Below are positions 7,658 through 30,068 of a stretch of 37,657 nucleotides of DNA, one piece after another. The position numbers and the translations under genes are program-made. Under the pieces are notes generated by a model, which had not been told where the DNA came from, did no database searches, and was given only the letters and a program-made list of their open reading frames with translations. Within the stretch, counting starts at the first letter, position 1. The number at the start of each line of letters is the position of its first letter. The stretch is from a virus (taxonomy: Duplodnaviria; Caudoviricetes), in IMG/VR virus record IMGVR_UViG_3300037188_000089, positions 1 to 37,657 of that record. One strand, written 5' to 3'.

Positions 7658-8280
7658 GCCGAGGCCTCCGCATTACCCCAGTATTGAGTAAACACTTGCT
7701 CAAACAGAGCGCAGGCCTGCCCCGCCGCCTCCGCGATCTCTGGCATCTGATAGGGCGATTCCTTGCCGCGGGCGCGCTGCAACGCGAAGTACAAAAAGTA
7801 ATCGGACAACACGGATGGAATCGGCGCCAGCGTTTGCGCCGGCGTGATCGTCTCCGCCGAAACGTGATCGATGGTTTCCAGTTCAGCCGCCGCCGATGGC
7901 TGGGGGTACAGGGTGATTGTCCCGAGCGCGCCCGCGTCGAGCGAATAGCGGTAAGGGAGTTCGCCCGGTTCGCAAATCAGCGCGAGCCACAATGAATCAT
8001 AGGCGACCAGCTCCGCTACGCTGGTCGGGCGAAGCTGCTGGCCGTTGACACTGACATGCAGCGAGTGTAGCCAGTTGGGCGCGCACGCATACTGCGGCGC
8101 CGCCGCCGTGATCGTTTGCGTGTTCGAGGAGACGAATAGACCCATCTCCGCGAGCTTTTGCGTCGCTTCATCGAAGTAGCCGTAGATTTCGTCTTCGGTA
8201 CACCAGTTCAGATCTGCCCAGGATAGGACGCCGGCGCGGCTCAGAAACTCGGCCGCCGTGGCTGTTAGATCAAAAGCCAT
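7654..8280 (-). CDS. Head-tail adaptor/ring protein paralog 3
   Basis: IYGYFDEATQKL, LRPTSVAEL, GELPYRY, ITLYPQP motifs shared with adjacent paralogs. Confidence 0.7.
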   Translation of the reverse strand: MAFDLTATAAEFLSRAGVLSWADLNWCTEDEIYGYFDEATQKLAEMGLFVSSNTQTITAAAPQYACAPNWLHSLHVSVNGQQLRPTSVAELVAYDSLWLALICEPGELPYRYSLDAGALGTITLYPQPSAAAELETIDHVSAETITPAQTLAPIPSVLSDYFLYFALQRARGKESPYQMPEIAEAAGQACALFEQVFTQYWGNAEASA

Positions 8281-8922
8281 CTACTTCACCCTCTCCAGTT
8301 CAAACGGTCCTACCGTCTCGTAGCCTGCGTCTTTGTTCCGTTCGCGCACCAACGCCGCCACGCGAACCGCCTCGCCCATGAACTCTTTCAGGTAGCCCGC
8401 GAACTTGGCGAACTCCTGCCCGCCTTCCGGTTGCCGCAAAGCCCACGATGCGTAATTGACGAGCGAATACTGCGACTGCATCCGAATCCCCGGCGTATCA
8501 TCGCCCGCCGCGAGCGTCGTCGGGCAGCACGCATAAACGATGCTGAGCGTGTCCGCGCTCGGCGGCTGCGGGTAAACAGCCAGCCAATCGAGCCCGCGCG
8601 CCACGTAGCGCAAAGGCACGCCCGCCGTGCCCTGCCAGTCGGAGTCGAGCGCTTCTAGCTGGGCAATTGTGGCCGGTCGCATCTGCTGCCCCGAAGAATT
8701 GTAAACCCGCCGAGGAAGAACGAAGTCCGGCAACTGCGTCAGCACGTTATAAGACAACTGCCCGCCCGTCAGAGCAAACGATGCCGTTTTCTCCAGACAC
8801 AGCGAGAGCAAAACAAAGACCCGCTGCGCTTCGTTCAGCGCGCCGGACGTGTCCGGGTAATACGTGCCGGTGCTGTCGTTAAGCTTGCCAAGCGTAAGAA
8901 GTTCGAGCGTCGTGAGCGTCAT
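8281..8922 (-). CDS. Head-tail adaptor/ring protein paralog 2
   Basis: Start reassigned to MTLTTLE (8922); ALNEAQR, LPDFV, MRPATIAQL, GVPLRY, LAVYPQP motifs. Confidence 0.7.
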   Translation of the reverse strand: MTLTTLELLTLGKLNDSTGTYYPDTSGALNEAQRVFVLLSLCLEKTASFALTGGQLSYNVLTQLPDFVLPRRVYNSSGQQMRPATIAQLEALDSDWQGTAGVPLRYVARGLDWLAVYPQPPSADTLSIVYACCPTTLAAGDDTPGIRMQSQYSLVNYASWALRQPEGGQEFAKFAGYLKEFMGEAVRVAALVRERNKDAGYETVGPFELERVK

Positions 8923-8940
8923 GCGGCGTATCCTTGGCTT

Positions 8941-9234
8941 ATGAAGAGAAGAGCGTTCTTCGCGGCGTTGTTTGGAGGCGCGATCGCCGCGCCAGTGGCT
9001 GTCAAGGCCGTAGCCGCAGCGCTCCCGGATGGCGTGGCTCTGTTCTCGTGCGCGCATCCGCCGCCGCTCGCGTCGATCGAGGAACCCGTCCTCGAACGCG
9101 CATATGTCCATCTCACGTACGCCTTGGGCTTTAAGGTCGACGGCAGTGATCCGTGGGGGAAACTGCTCGGCCACTCCATGCGCGAAACGCGCGAGCGCAT
9201 TGCCGCACAGATTTTCAACGATGGCCTACTGTAG
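8941..9234 (+). CDS. Twin-arginine-leader mini-protein built from permuted MCP segments
   Basis: MKRRAFF plus hydrophobic stretch; three segments align with the MCP at 15955-16878; TATCCT -10 at 8929-8934, 6 nt before ATG; fits exactly between flanking minus-strand genes. Confidence 0.85.
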   Translation: MKRRAFFAALFGGAIAAPVAVKAVAAALPDGVALFSCAHPPPLASIEEPVLERAYVHLTYALGFKVDGSDPWGKLLGHSMRETRERIAAQIFNDGLL

Positions 9235-9237
9235 CCG

Positions 9238-10407
9238 TCAATACGTGTATTGCGCAAGGATCGCCGCCCCTCCCGCTGGAATCGAGCCAGGCAAGAACAC
9301 AATGAGCATCCCCGACGCCGTGTAGTTCGTCCCGGCCAGCTTCAGCGCTCCGTTCACCGTCACGATGACCGGCGTCAACGCCGGATAGCTCAAGGTGAAC
9401 AAGCCGTTGACGCCGTTCACTGCGCCCGCTGGCGTTTCGCTTCGGAACGTCCCCGCGCCCGTCAATAAGTCATCGTCCGACGAATCAAGCAACACGTTAC
9501 GCGCGATCACGGGACCGCCAGAGCGCAAGAACCGGTCGATGCGATGCTGCCAGTAGCTTTGCTCCAGCATCATGCGCTGGCCTGGCCGTTTGTCGTTCTC
9601 GAGATGAATCATCGCACGGAAGAACGCTGCGTACATCGCTTCGTACGCCGCCGCCTTCGCTAACGACCCGTTCGGCTTTTCTAGCTCTAGATCCGCCTTC
9701 GCCCCGGCAATCAGTGCCGAACTAGAGACGGCCGCAAGCGGCGCATCCGTCGTCGAAGAACCATCGAACGCTTCCGCCACGGCGTCGTATTTGATTGGAT
9801 AGCCCTGCGCGAGCGTGGGAACCGGGTAAAGTAATATCTGCTGAACCGTCGCGCCCGTCTGCCCGTCGACGCCGTCCGGTTGCGGCACGTAGCTCCCGGC
9901 GGGCTCATTCACCGCCAGAAACGATCCCTCTAACTCGCCAAACACGTCTTCGTCGATCGCGTCCAGGTTCGCGCCGTCTACAGGCGAGCTGATCGAGCGG
10001 AGGTTACGGCAGTCGTCCGGCAGTTGATAAAGCGTTTGCGCGAGCCAATACGCTCCGTACGCGGTGCCTTCAAAGGGTCGATCGAGCGTCAGTGACGTAG
10101 CGCTCAGTATCGTCACGGTGTAAACCGGACCATTGCCCAGGAAGAGCTGCCGACCGGACATGGCGGACGTCCACGCCGTACCGACGCCCGTTACCGCCGT
10201 GGAGCCCGTTGTGAGCGTGATCGCTCCCGCGCTGTAAGCCGCCGTCGTTCGAAGGACGGCGCTCGCCTCGATCGCGTGCCAGTTCATGAGCGACAGAATC
10301 AGCTCATAGCGCGCGTTGATGGCGTGATCGATTTGGTCGAGCGAGATCTGCGGGCCTGCGAACTTTTGGAGTAAGAGGCGGATTTGGCCCCAGGAATAAG
10401 ACGCCAT
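9238..10407 (-). CDS. Head-tail adaptor/ring protein paralog 1 with inserted beta domain and C-terminal Ig-like domain
   Basis: Start MASYSWG (10407); AINARY, YQLPDDC, LLYPVP motifs; VTGVGTAWT insert; ETPAGAVNGVNGLFTL tail. Confidence 0.7.
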   Translation of the reverse strand: MASYSWGQIRLLLQKFAGPQISLDQIDHAINARYELILSLMNWHAIEASAVLRTTAAYSAGAITLTTGSTAVTGVGTAWTSAMSGRQLFLGNGPVYTVTILSATSLTLDRPFEGTAYGAYWLAQTLYQLPDDCRNLRSISSPVDGANLDAIDEDVFGELEGSFLAVNEPAGSYVPQPDGVDGQTGATVQQILLYPVPTLAQGYPIKYDAVAEAFDGSSTTDAPLAAVSSSALIAGAKADLELEKPNGSLAKAAAYEAMYAAFFRAMIHLENDKRPGQRMMLEQSYWQHRIDRFLRSGGPVIARNVLLDSSDDDLLTGAGTFRSETPAGAVNGVNGLFTLSYPALTPVIVTVNGALKLAGTNYTASGMLIVFLPGSIPAGGAAILAQYTY

Positions 10408-14920: not shown

Positions 14921-15916
14921 TTAGCTCAGGACCAGGCCGCCGTTGCCTGGATTGATACAGATAGCCGCGCCAAGGCAATTCACGTAGACGGTTTGCACGC
15001 CGCTCCCCGTGTTGCCGATGACGAACTGTAAAGTTAGCTGGGGTGTTGCCGTTTCCGGATCACGATACGTGCCACCGATCACCGAGAGAGTGCCGGACGG
15101 CGCAATGCCGCCGCCGCTGCCGGTCGATAAACCTTGGTCGGCTGAAGCGAACACGAACGTCGAAGGCGTCGCGACAAAGTTCTTGTTGGAAGTCGCCACG
15201 GCGATTTGATCGCTGGCGAGAAGCCGGATCGCTTTGTTCGCGCCGCTGGGCGTCACAACCGGCAGACTGCCGTTGCTCAACGTCTGCGACGGATTCGCCG
15301 CGAGGTAAGCCGCCAGCGTCGCCGGATTGAAGAAGCCGATGATCGGTTCGCCCGTGTTCGGGACGAGATTGATCTGGGTCGTGAGGTTCGCCGCCGTCGG
15401 CGTTGTCCCTGAAGCGCCAACTGAAGCGATAGTGAGGGAAGCGTAAAGGGCGGCAAGCTGCTTATCGCATTGTGCCCCGGTCTTGATAGCTAGGCGCATG
15501 GCCAGATCGAACAAGAGCGTCGGGTTTTTATTCACCACGTCGATCGGTACGATCTCTTTCACGCTGATGTTTTGATCGAACCAGCTTGTCGTAGCGGGCG
15601 AAGCGATCGCGTTGACGCTAAACGTCCCGCCCGCCACTACAGCGCTTTGCACGACGCGGTAAGAGTTCGCGAGAATGACGCTTTGCTGAATCGCCAGTAA
15701 CGGCACGAGCTTTGCCAGGGCGCCGATCAGCGCCAGGCAATCGCTATTTTGCGGTGCGCCGAGTGTGGCCGCCGGCAGATTGGTCGGATACCAGTTTGTC
15801 GGCACGCGCGCCGCTGCGACCGGTTGGCCGCCGCGGCCGGCGACACCGACCGATGTCCCGCCGATCCGTAGTTCGTTTGTGACCGTGGCAGTGCCAAAGT
15901 GGGTAGATTTGCTCAT
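14921..15916 (-). CDS. Second, diverged capsid-like protein (P22 coat-like)
   Basis: DKQLAALYASL..VGASGT, FFNPATLAAYL, NKNFVATPSTFVFASA, RDPET..LTLQFVI, VYVNCLGAAICINPGNGGLV resemble recalled P22-coat motifs; AAGGGG RBS. Confidence 0.55.
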   Translation of the reverse strand: MSKSTHFGTATVTNELRIGGTSVGVAGRGGQPVAAARVPTNWYPTNLPAATLGAPQNSDCLALIGALAKLVPLLAIQQSVILANSYRVVQSAVVAGGTFSVNAIASPATTSWFDQNISVKEIVPIDVVNKNPTLLFDLAMRLAIKTGAQCDKQLAALYASLTIASVGASGTTPTAANLTTQINLVPNTGEPIIGFFNPATLAAYLAANPSQTLSNGSLPVVTPSGANKAIRLLASDQIAVATSNKNFVATPSTFVFASADQGLSTGSGGGIAPSGTLSVIGGTYRDPETATPQLTLQFVIGNTGSGVQTVYVNCLGAAICINPGNGGLVLS

Positions 15917-15954: not shown

Positions 15955-16878
15955 CTAAGCGCTCGGGCTCGCCGCCAGGCCGTAAAAGCTATTGAAGCCG
16001 GAAGAAAACTGCATCCAGCCGGCCGTCTTCATGGAACGCGATTCGAAGTCAACGCCGTGAACGGTGTTGAACGCTTCGCGATCGTACCAACGGCATTCGG
16101 TTTCGGAGGTGTCCGCCTTAATGCCCCAAGCGTGCGGATCGTTCAAGTAATCCCACACGATGATGTTCTCGAACGAACTCATACCCACGCGTTTTTTGAA
16201 CGCGTTGAGGGCGCGGTTCGCCGTGTCCGGGCGTTCGTCGCCCTTGAGCTGCTCGATGCCCACGAACTCCAGCTCCGGAGGAAGCCAAAGAGTCGTAGGA
16301 ACGATGCGCTGTCTCAGGCCGCGGTGATTAACCGTGCGGCGCATGAGTGTAAGAAGCGCGCGAATCGAGTCCACATCCGGATCAGCCGCGATCGCCAGCA
16401 TGTTCGATTGCACGCCGCCGCCCACTAACGGGTGCGCGGTCGAGAAAAGCGGTACGGCGTCAGGTCCAGGATAGAGGGAACTGAAGCCCATGTTGAAGTT
16501 GTAAGCCGCGCTGACTTCTCGGGTTTCATGAGCCGACTTGCCCAGCTCTTTAGCGAGCTTCGCGAAGACGCCGAACTGGTCGTTATCCATCGCAATCTTG
16601 GTGACCTTGAAGCCAAGACCGTACTGCAAGTGCAGGTACGTTTTACGGAAGCCGGGTAACGGCGTATCGTAACGAACGCCCACGCCTTCGCCAACGACTG
16701 GCACGGTGCCGAAGCCGGTGACCTCTGTCGTTTGCTCAATTGAGCGTTTCGACCCAGCGACACGGAAGAACTGCTGGTATTGGGGAGGGAACTGATTGTA
16801 CCGGTTCATGATGACTTCATCAATCGCCGGCAACATCGAAGTGAGGTTTAAATCGGGTAGTAACTGTCTGACTATCAT
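15955..16878 (-). CDS. Major capsid protein (HK97 fold, Mu gpT-like family)
   Basis: GFGTVPVVGEG.GVRYD, YGLGFKVT, LGKSAHETRE, PLFSTAHPL, LWLPPEL, WDYLNDPHAW, DFESRSMK; AGGAG RBS. Confidence 0.92.
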   Translation of the reverse strand: MIVRQLLPDLNLTSMLPAIDEVIMNRYNQFPPQYQQFFRVAGSKRSIEQTTEVTGFGTVPVVGEGVGVRYDTPLPGFRKTYLHLQYGLGFKVTKIAMDNDQFGVFAKLAKELGKSAHETREVSAAYNFNMGFSSLYPGPDAVPLFSTAHPLVGGGVQSNMLAIAADPDVDSIRALLTLMRRTVNHRGLRQRIVPTTLWLPPELEFVGIEQLKGDERPDTANRALNAFKKRVGMSSFENIIVWDYLNDPHAWGIKADTSETECRWYDREAFNTVHGVDFESRSMKTAGWMQFSSGFNSFYGLAASPSA

Positions 16879-18457: not shown

Positions 18458-19225
18458 TTATACCTGACTTCCGGTGTAAACGACACCCTTCTGCGCGCGC
18501 GCTTTGTACGCCTCTTCCGACACACCCATCTGTTCGCAGAGATTCTTCTGGAAGGCGTCCAGTTCGTTATCGTCTTTGGCCGCCGCCGCCTTGCCGCCCT
18601 TGCGCCCGGTGTCGCCACCCGCTGCCGCCGCGTGCGCGTCGATATCGTCTTGCTGCGCTTTTGTGACGATCTTGCCAGCCTTCACGCCGTCCAGATAGGC
18701 ATTATTAGCTGCTTGGCGCGTGGCGATGATGTGCGGCGTGCCGGCGTCGATCAGGAGCCGGTAGTGCGTAGCTGTTTGCTTGAATAACTCGCTTTTCGGG
18801 TCCAGCAGGTCCGGGTATTCCTTCGTGAGCGCCGCTTCGTCGGTGAGTTGCCGGGCGCGCGTCTCGATCGCCGAAGCGAGCTCCGCCTTTGTCACAAAAC
18901 CGCTTTTGGCGACCAGTTCTGTGAGCCCCTTGCCGCCTTTCTTGGACATGACCTCGATCGGGTCTTCCTCTATTTCTGGAGTCTCAATCGGGGTATCCGC
19001 CTTCTTTTCCTTGCCCGAGTGCTTGGCTTGTTCATGCCAGTAGCGCGCCGCTTCGTCCTTCTCCGCCAACTGCGCGGCAAAAGTCGTCTCCTTCGCGGCG
19101 CCCTCGGCCTTGAGTGCGTCAATTTGCGTTTGCAGCGCAGCCATCGCCGCTGTATTGTCTTCGCCGCCGCCGGCGCCGCCCTCTTCGCCAGCCTCGGCGC
19201 GCAAAAGCGTCCAGTTTCTAAACAA
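18458..19225 (-). CDS. Capsid scaffolding protein
   Basis: LLRAEAGEEGGAGGG leader, acidic coiled coil, EYPDLLDPKSEL, C-terminal LDAFQKNLCEQMGVSEEAYK; AAGGAG before the TTG start. Confidence 0.8.
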   Translation of the reverse strand: MFRNWTLLRAEAGEEGGAGGGEDNTAAMAALQTQIDALKAEGAAKETTFAAQLAEKDEAARYWHEQAKHSGKEKKADTPIETPEIEEDPIEVMSKKGGKGLTELVAKSGFVTKAELASAIETRARQLTDEAALTKEYPDLLDPKSELFKQTATHYRLLIDAGTPHIIATRQAANNAYLDGVKAGKIVTKAQQDDIDAHAAAAGGDTGRKGGKAAAAKDDNELDAFQKNLCEQMGVSEEAYKARAQKGVVYTGSQV

Positions 19226-22414: not shown

Positions 22415-22620
22415 CGTAGAACAACCTTCCCGTCCTCGAGGTATGCCTGCATGATTGGTTGACCGTAATCCTCTCCATCGGCGTGCCGGACTATCGCAGT
22501 CGGCGGCAGCTTGCGCAGCACCTTGCGGAGATCCTTGACCGTAAAGCCCTCGCGCTGACTGACATGGGCGCCCTCGCGCGCTACCTCTGGGCAACCGAAC
22601 CCGACAACTGGCTTGCTCAT
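22411..22620 (-). CDS. Small phage hypothetical protein
   Basis: TVKDLRKVLRKLPPTAIV motif; coupled at both ends. Confidence 0.6.
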   Translation of the reverse strand: MSKPVVGFGCPEVAREGAHVSQREGFTVKDLRKVLRKLPPTAIVRHADGEDYGQPIMQAYLEDGKVVLR

Positions 22621-22958
22621 ATCACCCCGGAGGCAAGGCCAATCAAGTCGCTTTCGCTTAATCTCCGATGCACCTTGGCGTGTGGATACCTGGATAGAAC
22701 TTCGCCGACAACATCGCGCCCTTCCACCATGAAGTGCTGCACGGCCTTTTCGCCGTGAGCGTTCGTTCCAACAAGCGAACCGCGCTGATAGGCCGCGAAA
22801 CGCTTTATGGTCCTAGTCTCGAAGTCCGTCTGGAATCCTTCCGGCTCGTCGTCACGGACGTAAACATCAGTGATCTCTTCGCGCGAATGGGGCCGCGACG
22901 CCGACAGCGCCGCGCATGTAGACCCAATAACGGCAAGAAGCTCTCTTCGGTTCATCAT
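22617..22958 (-). CDS. Twin-arginine-leader mini-protein carrying an MCP C-terminal-like motif
   Basis: MMNRRELLAVIG leader; YVR-x9-DFETRTIK matches MCP YDR-x9-DFESRSMK without gaps. Confidence 0.7.
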   Translation of the reverse strand: MMNRRELLAVIGSTCAALSASRPHSREEITDVYVRDDEPEGFQTDFETRTIKRFAAYQRGSLVGTNAHGEKAVQHFMVEGRDVVGEVLSRYPHAKVHRRLSESDLIGLASGVI

Positions 22959-22961
22959 TGT

Positions 22962-25199
22962 TTACCCTGTCGGCGGCAATCCGCTACCCGGCGGCGGCTT
23001 CGCCCCTGGCGGCGGTGCGCCCTTGAATTCATGCGGCTTGATGGGCGGCGCCACACTCCCCGCGAGCGGCATCGGCGGCGTGATCGGCGTTCCGCCCGGC
23101 GGCATCATCACGCCCGGCGGCAGTTGCCCCATGCCCGTGCCAAGCGACGCCGCGGGATTCGCGCCCGTCGCCGCCGCTTGCTGAACGATTCGCTCCGTGA
23201 TCGCTTGTACCAGCTTTTTCTGTTCGAGCTGGTGAATGTGATCGACGTAATGCGCCTTCAACGCCGCGATGGCGTCTTTGTCGGCGTACTGATCTTCGAC
23301 CGCCAGGTTCAGATCCTTCATGTGGCGAACCATGTGTAACTGGTCGTTATCCTGCGGATTGACTTCGATCGCTTCGCCCTGCTGCATCCGCGCCCACTCG
23401 TCCTTCGGATTCAACGGCAGATCGCCCGCCGGCGGTTGTGGAACCAGATCGCCAAAGTCCGGATCGCCCAGAGCCTTGTGCGCGTCGTTCGTGACTTTCC
23501 AGAGTGCGGCCGGATTCTGAACAATGAGCGGATTCTGTAAGTCGAGCTGATAGCGCGCGAGCGTGTTCTCTTTGTCCGCGGCTCGACTCCACACCGACGT
23601 GGCTAGTTTCAAGCGAAAGTCGTAGCTGCCGTTGCGCTCCGCTTTCGCGAGGTACGAACCGCCCTTGCCTGTGTCGAATAGCCCATCGGCATCCTCTTCC
23701 GTCACGCGGAAGAACGTCTCGGCGTCGCCGAATTGAAACTCCAATATCCAGAACTTCTGAAAGACGAGCGCGTAGTCCTCGCGCAAGATGGTTGTGTCCA
23801 TCGTCATGCGCAAGTTGCCCGCCTGCATCAGCATCGCCTGGCCGCTCGCCGTGCGTGGCGCGTTCGGACGATCCGACGCGCGGCCGTTCGCCTGGTCGGT
23901 TTCGCCCGTCAAGCGTTCGAGGTACGACAAGACGACCTGCTCTTTCGCCGCGACCGCCTCCAGGTCTGCCGTGAACTTCATTTGGTTCATGTCAGTGGCG
24001 GGATTATCCATCGGGATCATATCGCCTGGCCGCAGTCTAAATTGCTTCGGCGCAAACCCCTGCGCCGGCTTGTAGCCAATCGGCGGCGATACGACTAGAT
24101 CCAGCGCATCCGATCCTTTGTTGTGGTTTGAGCGGATCTCGTCTTCGCTGTCGATCGATAGCGCCATCATGCCGTCACACCAATACGATCCGTCTTTTAC
24201 GTAGCTGGCTTCGACGAACGGACGCGGGAACGGATCGGCAGGATAGAGCTTCCGCAAATCTTGCGCGCCGATCATCAGGTAAGCCATGTCCGGCAGAACG
24301 CGGAAGACGATGTCGCTCTCGTTCAACTGCCGCTTGTCAACGTCGTATTCGTCGGCGTCGTGTTGGCCTTTCTTCAACATGCGCCAGCGCCCGTACCATT
24401 CGAGCATCAGCAATGTGGAGCCCGACGACATGCCGCCCTCTTGCTGGACACCCTCGGCGGCGTCTTTCTGGCGCTTCGTCTGATCGCCTTCGACCTCGCG
24501 TTTCTGGCGATTGTATGACTGCATCAGGATTTGCTTGTAGTTCTTTTTGATGTTGGTGTAGCGTCCAGCCTGCTCGCCGTCGAGAAGCTTCTGCGGCGTG
24601 ATCGCCACCTTGCGCACGAACCACGTAAAATCGTGCAGCGTTTCGGCGTCTTCCGCCGGAAACACCATGTCGTCGCCTTCCATCACCTGAAAGTCTGGGC
24701 CTTTGTAATAGGTGTTGGTTTGCGTGCCGTCCTTCGTCGTTTCAAAGTCGAAGCTCTTCTTTGTCCACGGCGTATAAGCGTGAACGCGGCCGAAGATGAT
24801 CTTGTAAAGCTCGAACTGCAATAGCCGATTTGTGAGCTTCATCGACTGAAACACGCGCCACGTCATGTAAGCGCCGATCTTCGCATCGTTGCGGTAGTCC
24901 GATGGTCCGTTCGGAACCGCGGTTATCTCCGCGTCGTCGCCGAAGATCGAATCGGCGTTGCGCGCCCACTTCTGCGAAGCGAGCCACTTGCACACCGGAA
25001 CCGGATAATTGCTCTTGTCTTCGTCGCCGGGCTTCGGTGGATCGACCAAACAACGCCAGCGACGAAAGAAGAGCGCTTGTTTCGCCATGCGTTTTGCGTG
25101 ATCGTCGAGCGCGTTCCGATAGTCCGCCATCACGCGATTGGCGAGCCGCGAGCTTTCCTGGTCGCTGAGCTTGATCTGGTACTGCGTTTGGTCAGGCAC
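22962..25199 (-). CDS. Portal protein (P22/N4-like)
   Basis: 745 aa after TerL; KSNYPVP, PRPFVEASY..GSYWCDG, LRPGDMIP, ERLTG, RTASG, Pro-rich tail. Confidence 0.9.
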   Translation of the reverse strand: MPDQTQYQIKLSDQESSRLANRVMADYRNALDDHAKRMAKQALFFRRWRCLVDPPKPGDEDKSNYPVPVCKWLASQKWARNADSIFGDDAEITAVPNGPSDYRNDAKIGAYMTWRVFQSMKLTNRLLQFELYKIIFGRVHAYTPWTKKSFDFETTKDGTQTNTYYKGPDFQVMEGDDMVFPAEDAETLHDFTWFVRKVAITPQKLLDGEQAGRYTNIKKNYKQILMQSYNRQKREVEGDQTKRQKDAAEGVQQEGGMSSGSTLLMLEWYGRWRMLKKGQHDADEYDVDKRQLNESDIVFRVLPDMAYLMIGAQDLRKLYPADPFPRPFVEASYVKDGSYWCDGMMALSIDSEDEIRSNHNKGSDALDLVVSPPIGYKPAQGFAPKQFRLRPGDMIPMDNPATDMNQMKFTADLEAVAAKEQVVLSYLERLTGETDQANGRASDRPNAPRTASGQAMLMQAGNLRMTMDTTILREDYALVFQKFWILEFQFGDAETFFRVTEEDADGLFDTGKGGSYLAKAERNGSYDFRLKLATSVWSRAADKENTLARYQLDLQNPLIVQNPAALWKVTNDAHKALGDPDFGDLVPQPPAGDLPLNPKDEWARMQQGEAIEVNPQDNDQLHMVRHMKDLNLAVEDQYADKDAIAALKAHYVDHIHQLEQKKLVQAITERIVQQAAATGANPAASLGTGMGQLPPGVMMPPGGTPITPPMPLAGSVAPPIKPHEFKGAPPPGAKPPPGSGLPPTG

Positions 25200-25821
25200 G
25201 GCGGGATGCCCTCAGCGGTATTAGTTTTCGGCCGGGCGGCGCCCATGGCGGCGGGGCGTCAATGACGGCGAGCGGGTGCGCTGACTCGCCTCTTCCTAAA
25301 GCGAAGTACTGATCTAACGGAAAGAGCGCGTGTGGCTGCAGTTCGCGAAAGACGCGGCCTAGCGTTTGCTCGATGCGATACGACTCATGGAAGTAAGCGC
25401 CACGGTCCATGTCGAGTTTGGCGCAACATGCCTTCCAATCAGCGCCGAGAAGGTAGTGGAAGCGAAAGAGCCGGTGCTGGGCGATGGTCAGCGAACGCTG
25501 CGCAACCAGGCAGAAGTCCGCGCAGTACTCTTCGTCCTTGCGTCCCCACATTCCCTGCCCGCGGGCGCCGTTGCGATTCTCTAGCGACGCAGCAGAGACG
25601 TGCGCAAACTTGCGATCGAGCGTGGCGAGTGCGCAAAAGCGGTTGTAGCACGCACGAAAGATGGCGCGAAACACACAGTTGCACGGCGTCTCCGCGCCGT
25701 GACGACCGAGTCGCTGTCCAAGACCGAAGCAATATACGCAACTTTGCTGGGCCAGCGCCAATGTCTCGCTGCGCGTCCAAACGGGCAGCTCCGTCGTGTG
25801 TTCGTTTCTTATTGTCTTCAT
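25192..25821 (-). CDS. Zn-finger plus sigma-r4-like HTH protein (candidate late regulator)
   Basis: ATGA-coupled start 25821; CVYC..PCNC zinc site, then LFRFHYLLGADWKACCAKLDMDRGAYFHESYRIEQTLGR HTH-like segment. Confidence 0.65.
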   Translation of the reverse strand: MKTIRNEHTTELPVWTRSETLALAQQSCVYCFGLGQRLGRHGAETPCNCVFRAIFRACYNRFCALATLDRKFAHVSAASLENRNGARGQGMWGRKDEEYCADFCLVAQRSLTIAQHRLFRFHYLLGADWKACCAKLDMDRGAYFHESYRIEQTLGRVFRELQPHALFPLDQYFALGRGESAHPLAVIDAPPPWAPPGRKLIPLRASRRA

Positions 25822-27563
25822 GCGACCTTTAGTCTTCTTCCGCGCTCGTCCGGTAAGTCGGAGGCGGGACGCCGGTAGTTGTCGATCTTCGTCAGCGCGT
25901 CCGGCAAGAGCGGCATCACGATCTTGGGCGGCATCTCTTGAATACCGACGCAAAGCAGCGCCAGGCCGATCACGTCGTCGTCGTGGCAACCATACGCGCC
26001 CTCCGCTTTGCCGTCCGCCTTAATCACAAAGGTTCGGCACTGCTGCTGTGTTTCCGGGTGATGGACGATTAAGGCGCCGGTGCGCAGCGCTTCGTCGAGC
26101 GTGGAGATCATTTGTGGCCGCGTCACTGTCGTCGTCAGGAAGCCGATCAGGTCGGCGCGCTCTTGCGGGTCTTGGTCGGTCGTGCGAATCCGGTGATAGA
26201 TGAGCGTCACTGGATAGCCTATTCGCCCGTCGTCGCCTTTCAGTAGTGCGTCGACCGTCGCCCAGCCGTGGTTATTAATTTCAGGAACAAGCTGTGCCCA
26301 GTTGTAGAAGCTGCCAAGCATCCAAAGCTGCCGTGCGAACTCCGCCGGCGTGAGGCGGGCGCTTAGTCGCGCCACGACTTCGCCCGTATCGCGATCGCCG
26401 ACTTGGGCGCAAGCGAAATCTGGATCCGCTTTGCCGCCGCCGCCTTTGAGAATGTCGATGCCTTGCGCTGAGTCAGCGCCGATGATGTACTGGCGATTGC
26501 GTTCCGGGCGTTTGTAGATCGTCAGTTCGCCGCGTTCGCGCTGAAGGAACCGCAGGCGCTTCTCGCCGCCGATGTCGTCAAGCTGCAAGCCGCCTGTGAG
26601 TCCATCGCGAATGATCGGCATTCGCTCAATCGAGGCAGAATTGAACCGAGGCCGTCCTGATGTTAGCCAGCATTCCTGCGGGTTGCTTGAAAACTCCTGC
26701 TTGAATAAGTCCTCGTCGCCGGTGAGATCGTTGCGAATCTTCCAGCGCCGCCAGGCGAGCTGCGGGAGCGTGAGGTTGTACGTCTCGCGCATCGTGCGCT
26801 CTTCGGGCGTGAGCACCGCCTGGAACGCCGCCGGCGTTGTGTCGTCTTCGGCCAGCGCGCGGACGTATTCAGGATGCTCCCACCAGCCGAAGTACTCCGC
26901 AATCCAATCCGACTCGCCATTTACCGCCGCTTCCCACATCGTGTGGAACTCGGTACCGACGCCCGCCGGCGAACTTTCGCCGATGACTTCGGTGTCCGGC
27001 GTCGTCGGAACGGCCGCCATCACGGAGGCGATGAGCTGCCGCGCGTGATCGCCGTAAAAGCCCAGCTCGCTAAAGTGAACGTTGTGGAGAGTGAACGAAC
27101 GTCCGATGTTCACGCTGCCCGCGGTGTGAATCTTGATCCAACTGCCGTTGTCGTATTCGAGGGCGTCCGTGCGATCGCTGATAAGCTTGGGCAAGCCGAT
27201 CACGCCGCGAAACGGTTTGTAGTTGTCGTGGAAGCGCTTATAGTGGTCGAAAATGTTCTTCGCGCTTTTCGCATCGTGAGCGAGCACGAGCGTATGCTGC
27301 CCCGGCTGCATGATCGTCCGTCGGAAGAAGCGCGACGCGACGTACACCGTGCCCCAGACCTGGCGCGCTTTTAAAAAAAGCAGACGGATAGCATGGCCTA
27401 GCTCCTCTTCGCGCTTGATCCGATTCGCCAGCTTCGTTTGCGCCGGGCCGTGAATCATCGGTACGAGCTGCCCGGCCTTGTTGAGCACCATCAGCGACTC
27501 ACGCGCGAAGATCGCGTCGTCGTTGAAGTCTTCGCGCAACGTTTTAAGATCGAGCGTCTTCAT
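25818..27563 (-). CDS. terL: Terminase large subunit
   Basis: Walker A-like LKARQVWGT, Walker B VHFSELGFY, ESSPAG coupling motif, FKQEF, nuclease IIGADSAQG and HDDDVIGLAL; ATGA-coupled start 27563 (alternative 27653). Confidence 0.95.
   Translation of the reverse strand: MKTLDLKTLREDFNDDAIFARESLMVLNKAGQLVPMIHGPAQTKLANRIKREEELGHAIRLLFLKARQVWGTVYVASRFFRRTIMQPGQHTLVLAHDAKSAKNIFDHYKRFHDNYKPFRGVIGLPKLISDRTDALEYDNGSWIKIHTAGSVNIGRSFTLHNVHFSELGFYGDHARQLIASVMAAVPTTPDTEVIGESSPAGVGTEFHTMWEAAVNGESDWIAEYFGWWEHPEYVRALAEDDTTPAAFQAVLTPEERTMRETYNLTLPQLAWRRWKIRNDLTGDEDLFKQEFSSNPQECWLTSGRPRFNSASIERMPIIRDGLTGGLQLDDIGGEKRLRFLQRERGELTIYKRPERNRQYIIGADSAQGIDILKGGGGKADPDFACAQVGDRDTGEVVARLSARLTPAEFARQLWMLGSFYNWAQLVPEINNHGWATVDALLKGDDGRIGYPVTLIYHRIRTTDQDPQERADLIGFLTTTVTRPQMISTLDEALRTGALIVHHPETQQQCRTFVIKADGKAEGAYGCHDDDVIGLALLCVGIQEMPPKIVMPLLPDALTKIDNYRRPASDLPDERGRRLKVA
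25849..25862 (-). promoter_or_regulatory. Motif copy 4 (TCCGACTTACCGGA, one mismatch) in the terL 3' end
   Basis: 27 nt upstream of ATG 25821, heading the regulator-portal genes. Confidence 0.6.
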
Positions 27564-27823
27564 CGTCGCCACCATTTCGGATAGCGTCGGTACGCGTGTT
27601 TTCGGCAACGCGCGACGTAGTAACCGTTCCAGATCGCGCAGCCGCACGGGCACGGACAGAAGGAGTCCCCGGTGTAAGGCGATGGCTTGACGCCCAGGTG
27701 CGCGCGTCTCATGCGCCGAATCTCTTCCCGCTCATCCAGTTCAGCAATCGCGCCAGCCACGGATGGCGACCGTGTATGTCGTGCGGGTAGAAGGGCGGAT
27801 GGAAGCGCCCACAGATCCGGCAA
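27560..27823 (-). CDS. Small Cys-rich hypothetical protein
   Basis: CPCPCGC..C..H; fills the gap between sigma and terL. Confidence 0.5.
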   Translation of the reverse strand: MPDLWALPSALLPARHTRSPSVAGAIAELDEREEIRRMRRAHLGVKPSPYTGDSFCPCPCGCAIWNGYYVARCRKHAYRRYPKWWRR

Positions 27824-29572: not shown

Positions 29573-29796
29573 GTTATGTCGATGAATTGCTCGCCAGCAA
29601 GGCGGTCGAGCGCTTCGAGCGACGGCTCATAGCCGCGAGCCCACGCCGTCGCACACACAACGCCCATAGCGAAAGCGTTCTCGAACGATGCCCCGGCGAC
29701 GAGTAGAGCAGTGACGCGATCGAGCGTCTCTTGCGCTGGGGTGTGCCGGCGAAGTTGACGCCGTTCTTTGTCGGTCAACTTGGGTCGGTCTAGCAT
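29569..29796 (-). CDS. Hypothetical protein
   Basis: Overlap-coupled member of a small-gene operon. Confidence 0.5.
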   Translation of the reverse strand: MLDRPKLTDKERRQLRRHTPAQETLDRVTALLVAGASFENAFAMGVVCATAWARGYEPSLEALDRLAGEQFIDIT

Positions 29797-30068
29797 TTGC
29801 TATCGCGATTGAGGGCGACTTGTCGCTCTACTTGCGCCGAGAGCAGCGAAAGGGCAGGCAGCGCGCGGAAGCGTACTTCTATGGCCTCGCATTCGGTAAT
29901 GCGGCGATACTCGCCGTCCGCGGTGCGCACGAAGTATATCCACGATTCGACAAGCTTCGGCGGCGACGGAATCGAGATCGTCTTCGCGCCCGGCACCCAT
30001 AGCAGCCGCTCGGGATCGAGCACGGCGGCGGCGATCATGCCGAAGAGGAATGAACGGCGGTTAGTCAT
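29790..30068 (-). CDS. Twin-arginine-leader mini-protein (third copy)
   Basis: MTNRRSFLFGMIAAAVLDPERLLWVPGAKTISIP leader. Confidence 0.7.
   Translation of the reverse strand: MTNRRSFLFGMIAAAVLDPERLLWVPGAKTISIPSPPKLVESWIYFVRTADGEYRRITECEAIEVRFRALPALSLLSAQVERQVALNRDSKC

Follow-up and report, generated by a model that had tools for sequence, protein, structure and literature searches.

The locus described here raises the question of why a phage whose structural operon lies on the minus strand should carry a short plus-strand open reading frame (ORF) resembling pieces of its capsid protein, and what the product of this ORF could do. The window, by which we mean the whole 37,657-nucleotide stretch of DNA analysed, is a provirus record from a peat metagenome, estimated by CheckV to be 81% complete; the stretch was present whole in one metagenome run, which may be its source, and in pieces only in a second run. 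The structural operon on its minus strand includes the terminase (25818-27653), a portal-like gene (22962-25199), a likely scaffold gene assigned from its position (18458-19225), the gene for the major capsid protein (MCP; 15955-16878), which has a Mu gpT-like HK97 fold (PF25209, E 6e-13; PF10124, E 2e-9), and three SU10-type adaptors. We infer an acidobacterial host, because, of the four bacterial-genome sequences that match the MCP most closely (54-61% identical), three come from Bryobacterales or Bryobacteraceae metagenome-assembled genomes (MAGs) and the fourth from a Streptosporangiaceae MAG. Directly after the MCP lies a gene for a 331-aa protein (14921-15916, minus strand) without a Pfam or PHROG match, which has a relative at the same place in one related locus (L004, 43%) and not in another (L003).

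The ORF itself, a mini-gene for a 97-aa product at 8941-9234 (plus strand), begins 18 bp from the start of its divergent neighbour, a SU10 adaptor-like head-tail adaptor gene (8281-8922, minus strand; PF24175, E 1.9e-15, above cut-off), and ends 3 bp from the stop of its convergent neighbour, an adaptor-like gene (9238-10407, minus strand) matching the same family below cut-off (E 1.9e-4). The sequence-only reading from which this work set out had placed the ORF between two minus-strand adaptor genes, and this was borne out. In the product, a twin-arginine leader is followed by three segments resembling the MCP: block C (aa 29-40; 9025-9060), like MCP139-150 with 9/12 residues identical; block A (aa 55-66; 9103-9138), like MCP81-92 with 9/12 identical; and block B (aa 74-95; 9160-9225), like MCP110-131 with 13/22 identical. 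The matching MCP segments are encoded on the minus strand at 16429-16464 (C), 16603-16638 (A) and 16486-16551 (B). The order of the blocks in the ORF, C-A-B, is therefore permuted with respect to the MCP, and the linker between A and B is 7 aa long, as compared with 17 in the MCP; these identities, the permutation and the shortened linker had all been noted beforehand and were exact on recount. A tblastn comparison within the window gave E values of 7.7e-7 for aa 49-95 and 0.055 for aa 29-40, and the observed block score was matched by none of 5000 shuffles for aa 49-97 and by one of 5000 for aa 26-47. The match between the ORF and the MCP blocks is beyond chance. Searched as a single sequence, the ORF had no Pfam or PHROG capsid match.

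We examined the coding evidence for the ORF. Its codon score was 0.30, in comparison with 0.34-0.39 for four real genes, and the other five frames scored below 0. A 127-codon opposite-strand frame across the insertion described below (8919-9302, minus strand), the stop of which overlaps the adaptor start, also scored below 0 and was set aside as a shadow. The codons of one block had been said to have diverged while the residues were conserved, and this held for the blocks together: 17 of the 31 identical residues are encoded by a different codon, and the identity between ORF and MCP by codon position is 34, 35 and 19 of 46. No blastn match between the two was found, and we accordingly rejected nucleotide-level copying of the MCP gene, as well as an antisense-RNA action on its message. 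The further claim, that the ORF is a gene and not recent debris, agreed with the codon use, the homologues and the selection seen in relatives, but the codon argument by itself was insufficient. Codon divergence would also be compatible with capture from a diverged MCP, and it is therefore the homologues that carry the argument.

Only 2 bp separate the two adaptor genes in L003, the closest relative (MCP 86% identical); for this reason we regard the ORF as a 315-bp insertion (8923-9237), which is absent from the closest relatives. The two adaptors are separated by less than 100 bp in 19 of the 29 relatives holding both, and by more in 10; nine of these ten wide-gap relatives were inspected and none had a capsid-piece gene between the adaptors. 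Among 16,578 stop-to-stop segments taken from the window and 90 related loci, the ORF was the only non-MCP match to a capsid profile. In 50 whole records a second match, to the leader only, was found in just one virus, and 48 related virus records, of which 10 are at least 90% complete, yielded no capsid-piece gene. A leader-only match in G024 was rejected, its cargo having no significant capsid similarity (984 of 2000 shuffles were as good). The mini-gene is rare in its own clade, and is a singleton at 90% without a close nucleotide relative.

More distant homologues exist. A phmmer search over 1.84 billion proteins returned three non-self matches, 36-45% identical, two of which (P0008 and P0009) keep the order leader-C-A-B, while in the third (P0010) block C is replaced by a piece like the N-terminus of the MCP. 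Further homologues were retrieved with a DNA pattern of leader followed by block C, a procedure that inflates the apparent conservation of both. All 10 of the pattern matches in viral contigs were mini-proteins (76-129 aa), as were 16 of the 17 in metagenome contigs, four of which repeat viral hits and one of which is cut by the contig end; the seventeenth (L035, 387 aa) was dropped as a chance match. The order C-A-B was found in L033 (the same as L037), L041, L046 and L048 and the order C-B in L034, L036 and P0012, whereas other members carry MCP54-72, MCP164-181 or the N-terminal helix after C, again out of order. Conservation of the permutation among homologues was thereby confirmed, P0008 and P0009 included. 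As compared with five homologues, the ORF shares 6-9/12 residues in block C, 4-8/12 in block A and 8-10/22 in block B, and only 0-2/14 and 0/7 in the linkers. A profile of the family matched the MCP profile over MCP78-135 with a probability of 98.4% (E 8.9e-15), so that the proposed capsid relationship held at the profile level. Other searches were less productive: a word-indexed protein search recovered only the ORF itself among 16 candidates and 0/5 among longer proteins, an alignment search of viral contigs yielded five full capsid genes and no mini-genes, no relative of the ORF was found in 40 viral-contig stretches or in GenBank phages, an Atlas search with the ORF gave unnamed clusters only, below 0.9, and in four loci found via P0008 the leader alone is shared.

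In 10 of the records retrieved with the pattern, six non-MCP matches were obtained with a capsid profile that does not cover the leader. All six fell in twin-arginine ORFs, and five of them form a single orthologous group, a second mini-gene situated about 4 kb away. In one phage lineage (L016, L020, L021, L022 and L023), each record has two mini-genes with Tat leaders 3.5-4.3 kb apart, which cover different MCP segments; the terminase of L021 starts 5 bp beyond the end of its second mini-gene. Three records were long enough to include their own gpT-type MCP, which is on the same strand as the mini-genes, and in all four annotated relatives the mini-gene runs in the same direction as terminase or portal. 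The antisense orientation noted at first is consequently peculiar to the member in the window and did not survive as a family trait.

The relatives used all have open frames and in-frame indels, with no stop-riddled frame among them, and their dN/dS values were below 1: 0.24-0.70 in 42 non-independent pairs of at least 60% identity (of 61, the 19 more distant being dropped), and 0.26-0.39 in eight pairs of the C-A-B/C-B group, each with p < 0.05. These ranges belong to the relatives and not to the ORF itself. In five disjoint pairs, pN/pS was 0.09 for the leader, 0.30 for C, 0.38 for A, 0.54 for B and 0.71 for the rest, where the figures for the leader and C are biased downwards by the few codons that the pattern fixed in three of the five pairs. 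The ratios show purifying selection on the relatives, the leader being the most constrained part. Taken together, these data make it very probable that the ORF belongs to a genuine gene family and is functional. In this family, new genes have plainly arisen through the reordering of short conserved stretches of an essential gene.

The expression of the ORF in the window was considered from its upstream sequence. A possible leaderless -10 element, TATCCT, lies at 8929-8934 (plus strand), 6 nt before the ATG. It overlaps the AAGGA at 8931-8935 (minus strand), which precedes the adaptor's ATG (8922) by 8 nt and is likely the ribosome-binding site of that gene; the adaptor needs one of its own because the insertion uncouples it from its neighbour. 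A sigma-70 scan made no promoter call upstream of the ORF and found no -35, and a scan for a terminator on the plus strand at the ORF found none. The background chance of TAnnnT at the same distance is about 1.2% in the window. In a 143-kb sample of a Bryobacteraceae MAG, TAnnnT was not enriched 5-7 nt before ATG (2 of 131 crude starts, as compared with 2.5 expected), whereas in related phage loci such hexamers numbered 15 versus 11.1, with a skew towards opposite-strand ORFs (6/314, several of these ORFs being probably shadows) as compared with same-strand ORFs (3/732). Thus, the leaderless -10 that had been proposed is exact in position, but it overlaps the neighbour's AAGGA, was not called by the scan and has weak statistics. 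Leaderless expression of the ORF is plausible from its sequence. Small ORFs with strong -10-like hexamers 6-7 nt before ATG were also seen on the strand opposite to the MCP in L067 (6094-6454), L068 (18191-18437) and L090 (1130-1310), which suggests that hexamer-preceded antisense ORFs of this kind may be leaderless accessory genes in this phage group.

One possible explanation for a singleton that is missing from close relatives and has such weak promoter evidence is that it is a silent copy, either a family member that landed backwards or recombination debris; the lack of hexamer enrichment in the likely host relative would agree with this. However, the ORF spans the insertion with an unbroken frame and native codon use (GC3 0.73), it belongs to a family under purifying selection, and a TAnnnT at that distance is seldom met by chance. 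We consider a silent copy highly unlikely, and treat the ORF below as a gene.

The source of the blocks was assessed against a panel of 68 MCPs. The mean block score was 147-148 for MCPs at least 55% identical to the phage's own, 123 for those at 40-55% and 105 for those below 40%. The own MCP ranked only 18 of 68; at two of the three positions where block C differs from it, block C has the family consensus residue, and block C corresponds to the second most conserved 12-residue window of the 68 MCPs. The mini-proteins of G008 and G002 rank their own MCPs 1, 2 and 4 of 68, with only two members of their clade in the panel. The claim that the blocks match this phage's MCP was therefore right as to capsid origin and clade, but not as to the own MCP in particular. 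The blocks track the capsid clade of the carrier, and are not a recent copy of its own MCP.

To place the blocks on the capsid fold, we modelled the MCP by AlphaFold2 on 68 sequences (pLDDT 86, pTM 0.80; pLDDT was 30 when 6 sequences were used). The model matched HK97 folds with E values of about 1e-11, and the MCP profile matched the Mu capsid 9jod with an E value of 5.9e-17. It shows strands at 75-82 and 84-92, and its longest helix at 102-129. In the model, block A would be the P-domain strand (84-92) that returns from the E-loop, block B the C-terminal two-thirds of the spine helix together with its cap, and block C the loop that follows, the P-domain strand and spine helix being presumably those of the HK97 topology from which we take the names. 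The suggestion that the blocks include the spine helix is thus supported by the model, in which block B falls on helix 102-129. The Mu gpT-like MCP family (PF10124, PF25209, 9jod) is the source of all three blocks, whereas the ORF represents only 46 of about 307 MCP residues, and these out of order. A complete HK97 fold comprises N-arm, E-loop, P- and A-domains, which the 97-aa product does not have, and the ORF could not form this fold. The Atlas model of the ORF was poor (pTM 0.19), and the best TM in a structure search was 0.36. We infer that the three blocks may fold together so as to imitate a single capsid surface on a small scale.

The leader (aa 1-28; 8941-9024) has the build of a Tat signal as defined in section 4 of PMC6708511. 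It has RRxF at residues 3-6, 17 uncharged residues, Lys22 and Ala-x-Ala sites at 23-27, that is, a hydrophobic h-region followed by a c-region with a basic residue and Ala-x-Ala. Against the Tat consensus S-R-R-x-F-L-K, its K-R-R-A-F-F-A agrees in the twin arginine and the Phe and differs at S, the polar x, L and K. No match to PF10518 was found at E 0.1, the best being a weak TM_PetC (E 0.088), and there was none in NCBIfam; the leader of the homologue P0009 reached E 0.089 against a curated Tat profile, below cut-off. The description of the leader as Tat-like was accordingly upheld by its anatomy and by its being the part most constrained in relatives, but it scores below the curated Tat profiles. 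TatC was present in all three MAGs of the likely host group. As described in the available text of PMC4273604, Tat carries bound partners across as hitchhikers, e.g., PaoABC and HybOC, and many unfolded cargos are rejected by Tat according to PMC6708511. The known Tat and hitchhiker cases share with the ORF the RRxF, the hydrophobic stretch, the basic residue and the Ala-x-Ala, and they export partners; however, they are host enzymes, whereas this leader is phage-encoded, has a two-residue n-region and precedes a 69-residue capsid mosaic. The part of a Klebsiella phage study available to us (PMC13412088) reports no Tat signals in its phages, and the ORF is a rare candidate for a phage-encoded Tat substrate.

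The strong constraint on the leader would also be expected if the leader were the working part, jamming the host Tat translocase or a leader-binding chaperone, with the capsid pieces as weakly selected cargo. The leader has by far the lower pN/pS as compared with block B, the cargo varies widely, many leader-sharing genes have no capsid piece (18 of the 21 viral loci sharing a second twin-arginine leader of the window, and a further family in L010-L013), and the loss of tatC affects infection by some phages, as stated in the same part of PMC13412088. Nevertheless, the blocks are kept among homologues of about 40% identity while the linkers are erased, the cargo tracks the clade of the carrier, and several phages have two mini-genes that cover different parts of the MCP. 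We therefore regard a leader-only function as improbable. A mature mimic could also be exported to act outside the cytoplasm, where it might, for example, lure a periplasmic or surface protein or anchor assembling heads to the membrane. The Ala-x-Ala sites would permit cleavage and the leader is strongly selected, but a clear site is absent from many relatives, and the capsid sensors in the cited papers, as far as their available texts go, act in the cytoplasm. An extracytoplasmic role seems to us very improbable.

We prefer, tentatively and at somewhat less than even chances, the hypothesis that the ORF product is a bait carrying capsid epitopes, to which a host sensor binds, and that Tat sequesters or exports the complex. 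The bait would bind a host capsid sensor of the CapRel or Lit kind, which reads short motifs. Owing to the permutation and the short linker, the three blocks may pack together although the A-domain and the E-loop, which assembly needs, are missing. A free capsid piece could itself trigger the sensor, and the leader would disarm it by membrane tethering or by hitchhiker export, so that real capsid could then accumulate unsensed. In favour of such a decoy are the conservation of the blocks and their order in homologues, the tracking of the capsid clade and the presence of TatC in the likely host group; the co-orientation of the annotated relatives with terminase or portal also favours action at the time of capsid synthesis. 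The constraint on the leader, higher than that on the blocks, counts against such a decoy, as do the antisense position of this member, the low scores of the leader against the Pfam Tat model, and the poor Atlas model in view of the many unfolded cargos that Tat rejects.

This hypothesis rests in part on analogy with known systems. CapRel SJ46 is reported to contact the P-domain beta-sheet and the spine helix (available text of PMC9712102), elements that the ORF keeps, and Lit, which recognises Gol, and CapRel are reported to detect the MCP via short motifs that could be imitated (10.64898/2026.01.04.697583, in part). However, both sensors belong to the host and respond to the complete capsid protein, and the portions of these sources at hand describe no phage fragment decoy. 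The latter source also describes Avs7, Avs8 and Avs10, which point to widespread selection pressure on HK97-fold capsids; they are reported to wrap the folded MCP and the A-domain interface, and are poor candidate targets because that interface is missing from the ORF. The anti-DSR2 protein DSAD1 (PMC11087589, available part) follows the same logic, being a small phage protein that competes with the tail tube for a sensor. It differs in having another target and in that neither trigger pieces nor an export leader are described for it there; its binding has been shown, whereas that of the ORF is proposed only. Our full-text literature search (titles and abstract starts, mostly open-access) found no description of a design combining a Tat leader with capsid fragments, and such proteins are not mentioned in the available portions of two counter-defence reviews (PMC13728456, PMC12409349) and a Tat review (PMC13673990). 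A decoy of this kind would be a form of counter-defence in which the phage imitates a structural protein that it cannot change and links the imitation to an export machine of the host; each mini-protein would point to a surface read by a sensor, and could serve as bait to isolate sensors from soil bacteria. It is a rather unlikely extension that the whole family consists of modular bait-and-export proteins, re-cut from the capsid of each lineage, in which case the mini-proteins would map the capsid surfaces under immune surveillance in uncultured hosts.

The orientation of the ORF within the late operon bears on a different hypothesis, namely that a mimic made in the lysogen attaches to the scaffold or MCP of superinfecting relatives, which the leader then pins or exports, so that head assembly is blocked; transcription of the late operon across the ORF would keep it silent when the phage itself enters the lytic cycle. 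The ORF is antisense to that operon, and therefore fits expression in a lysogen better than the timing of capsid synthesis, and it has the possible leaderless -10. Its blocks agree with the MCPs of clade relatives at least as well as with the own MCP, and other members carry the N-terminal helix together with the spine helix, which face the scaffold in HK97-fold heads. The Tai/Ati systems (PMC11364771, available text) are a precedent for prophage assembly inhibitors: an accessory gene among the late genes, in a non-contiguous operon, blocks assembly of a competitor. They act on tails and show no leader-plus-fragment design there. The ORF matched no Pfam, PHROG or NCBIfam family of note. The relatives, on the other hand, are co-oriented with terminase, portal and MCP, and would therefore be made with the capsid, where a poison of its own clade would hit the carrier; at the ORF itself, neither a plus-strand terminator nor a -35 was found. 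An assembly poison is in our view unlikely, and would represent a new class of head-assembly inhibitors.

Several minor observations concern other leader-bearing genes. The window has a second twin-arginine mini-gene for a 92-aa product (29790-30068, minus strand), with another conserved module after the leader. A match of this product to a P22 coat had been suspected by eye and was not found, and its cargo matched none of the sequences compared. In the loci sharing its leader, the 18 mentioned above have no detectable capsid piece, and the other three (L144, L150 and L152) contain pieces that resemble a coat-like gene of the same locus, which we take to be of P22 type. A 113-aa ORF directly after the portal-like gene (22617-22958, minus strand) has a twin arginine and a hydrophobic stretch without the Phe; it is a singleton and had no family match. 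The separate 128-129-aa family in L010 (6965-7351), L011 (4566-4955), L012 (10001-10390) and L013 (2747-3136) has a twin-arginine leader, a proline-rich linker and a C-terminal motif, with no capsid piece noticed. In L021, a peptide deformylase gene (933-1457) lies between terminase and portal, and a PAPS-reductase-like gene (7961-8767) between the two mini-genes.
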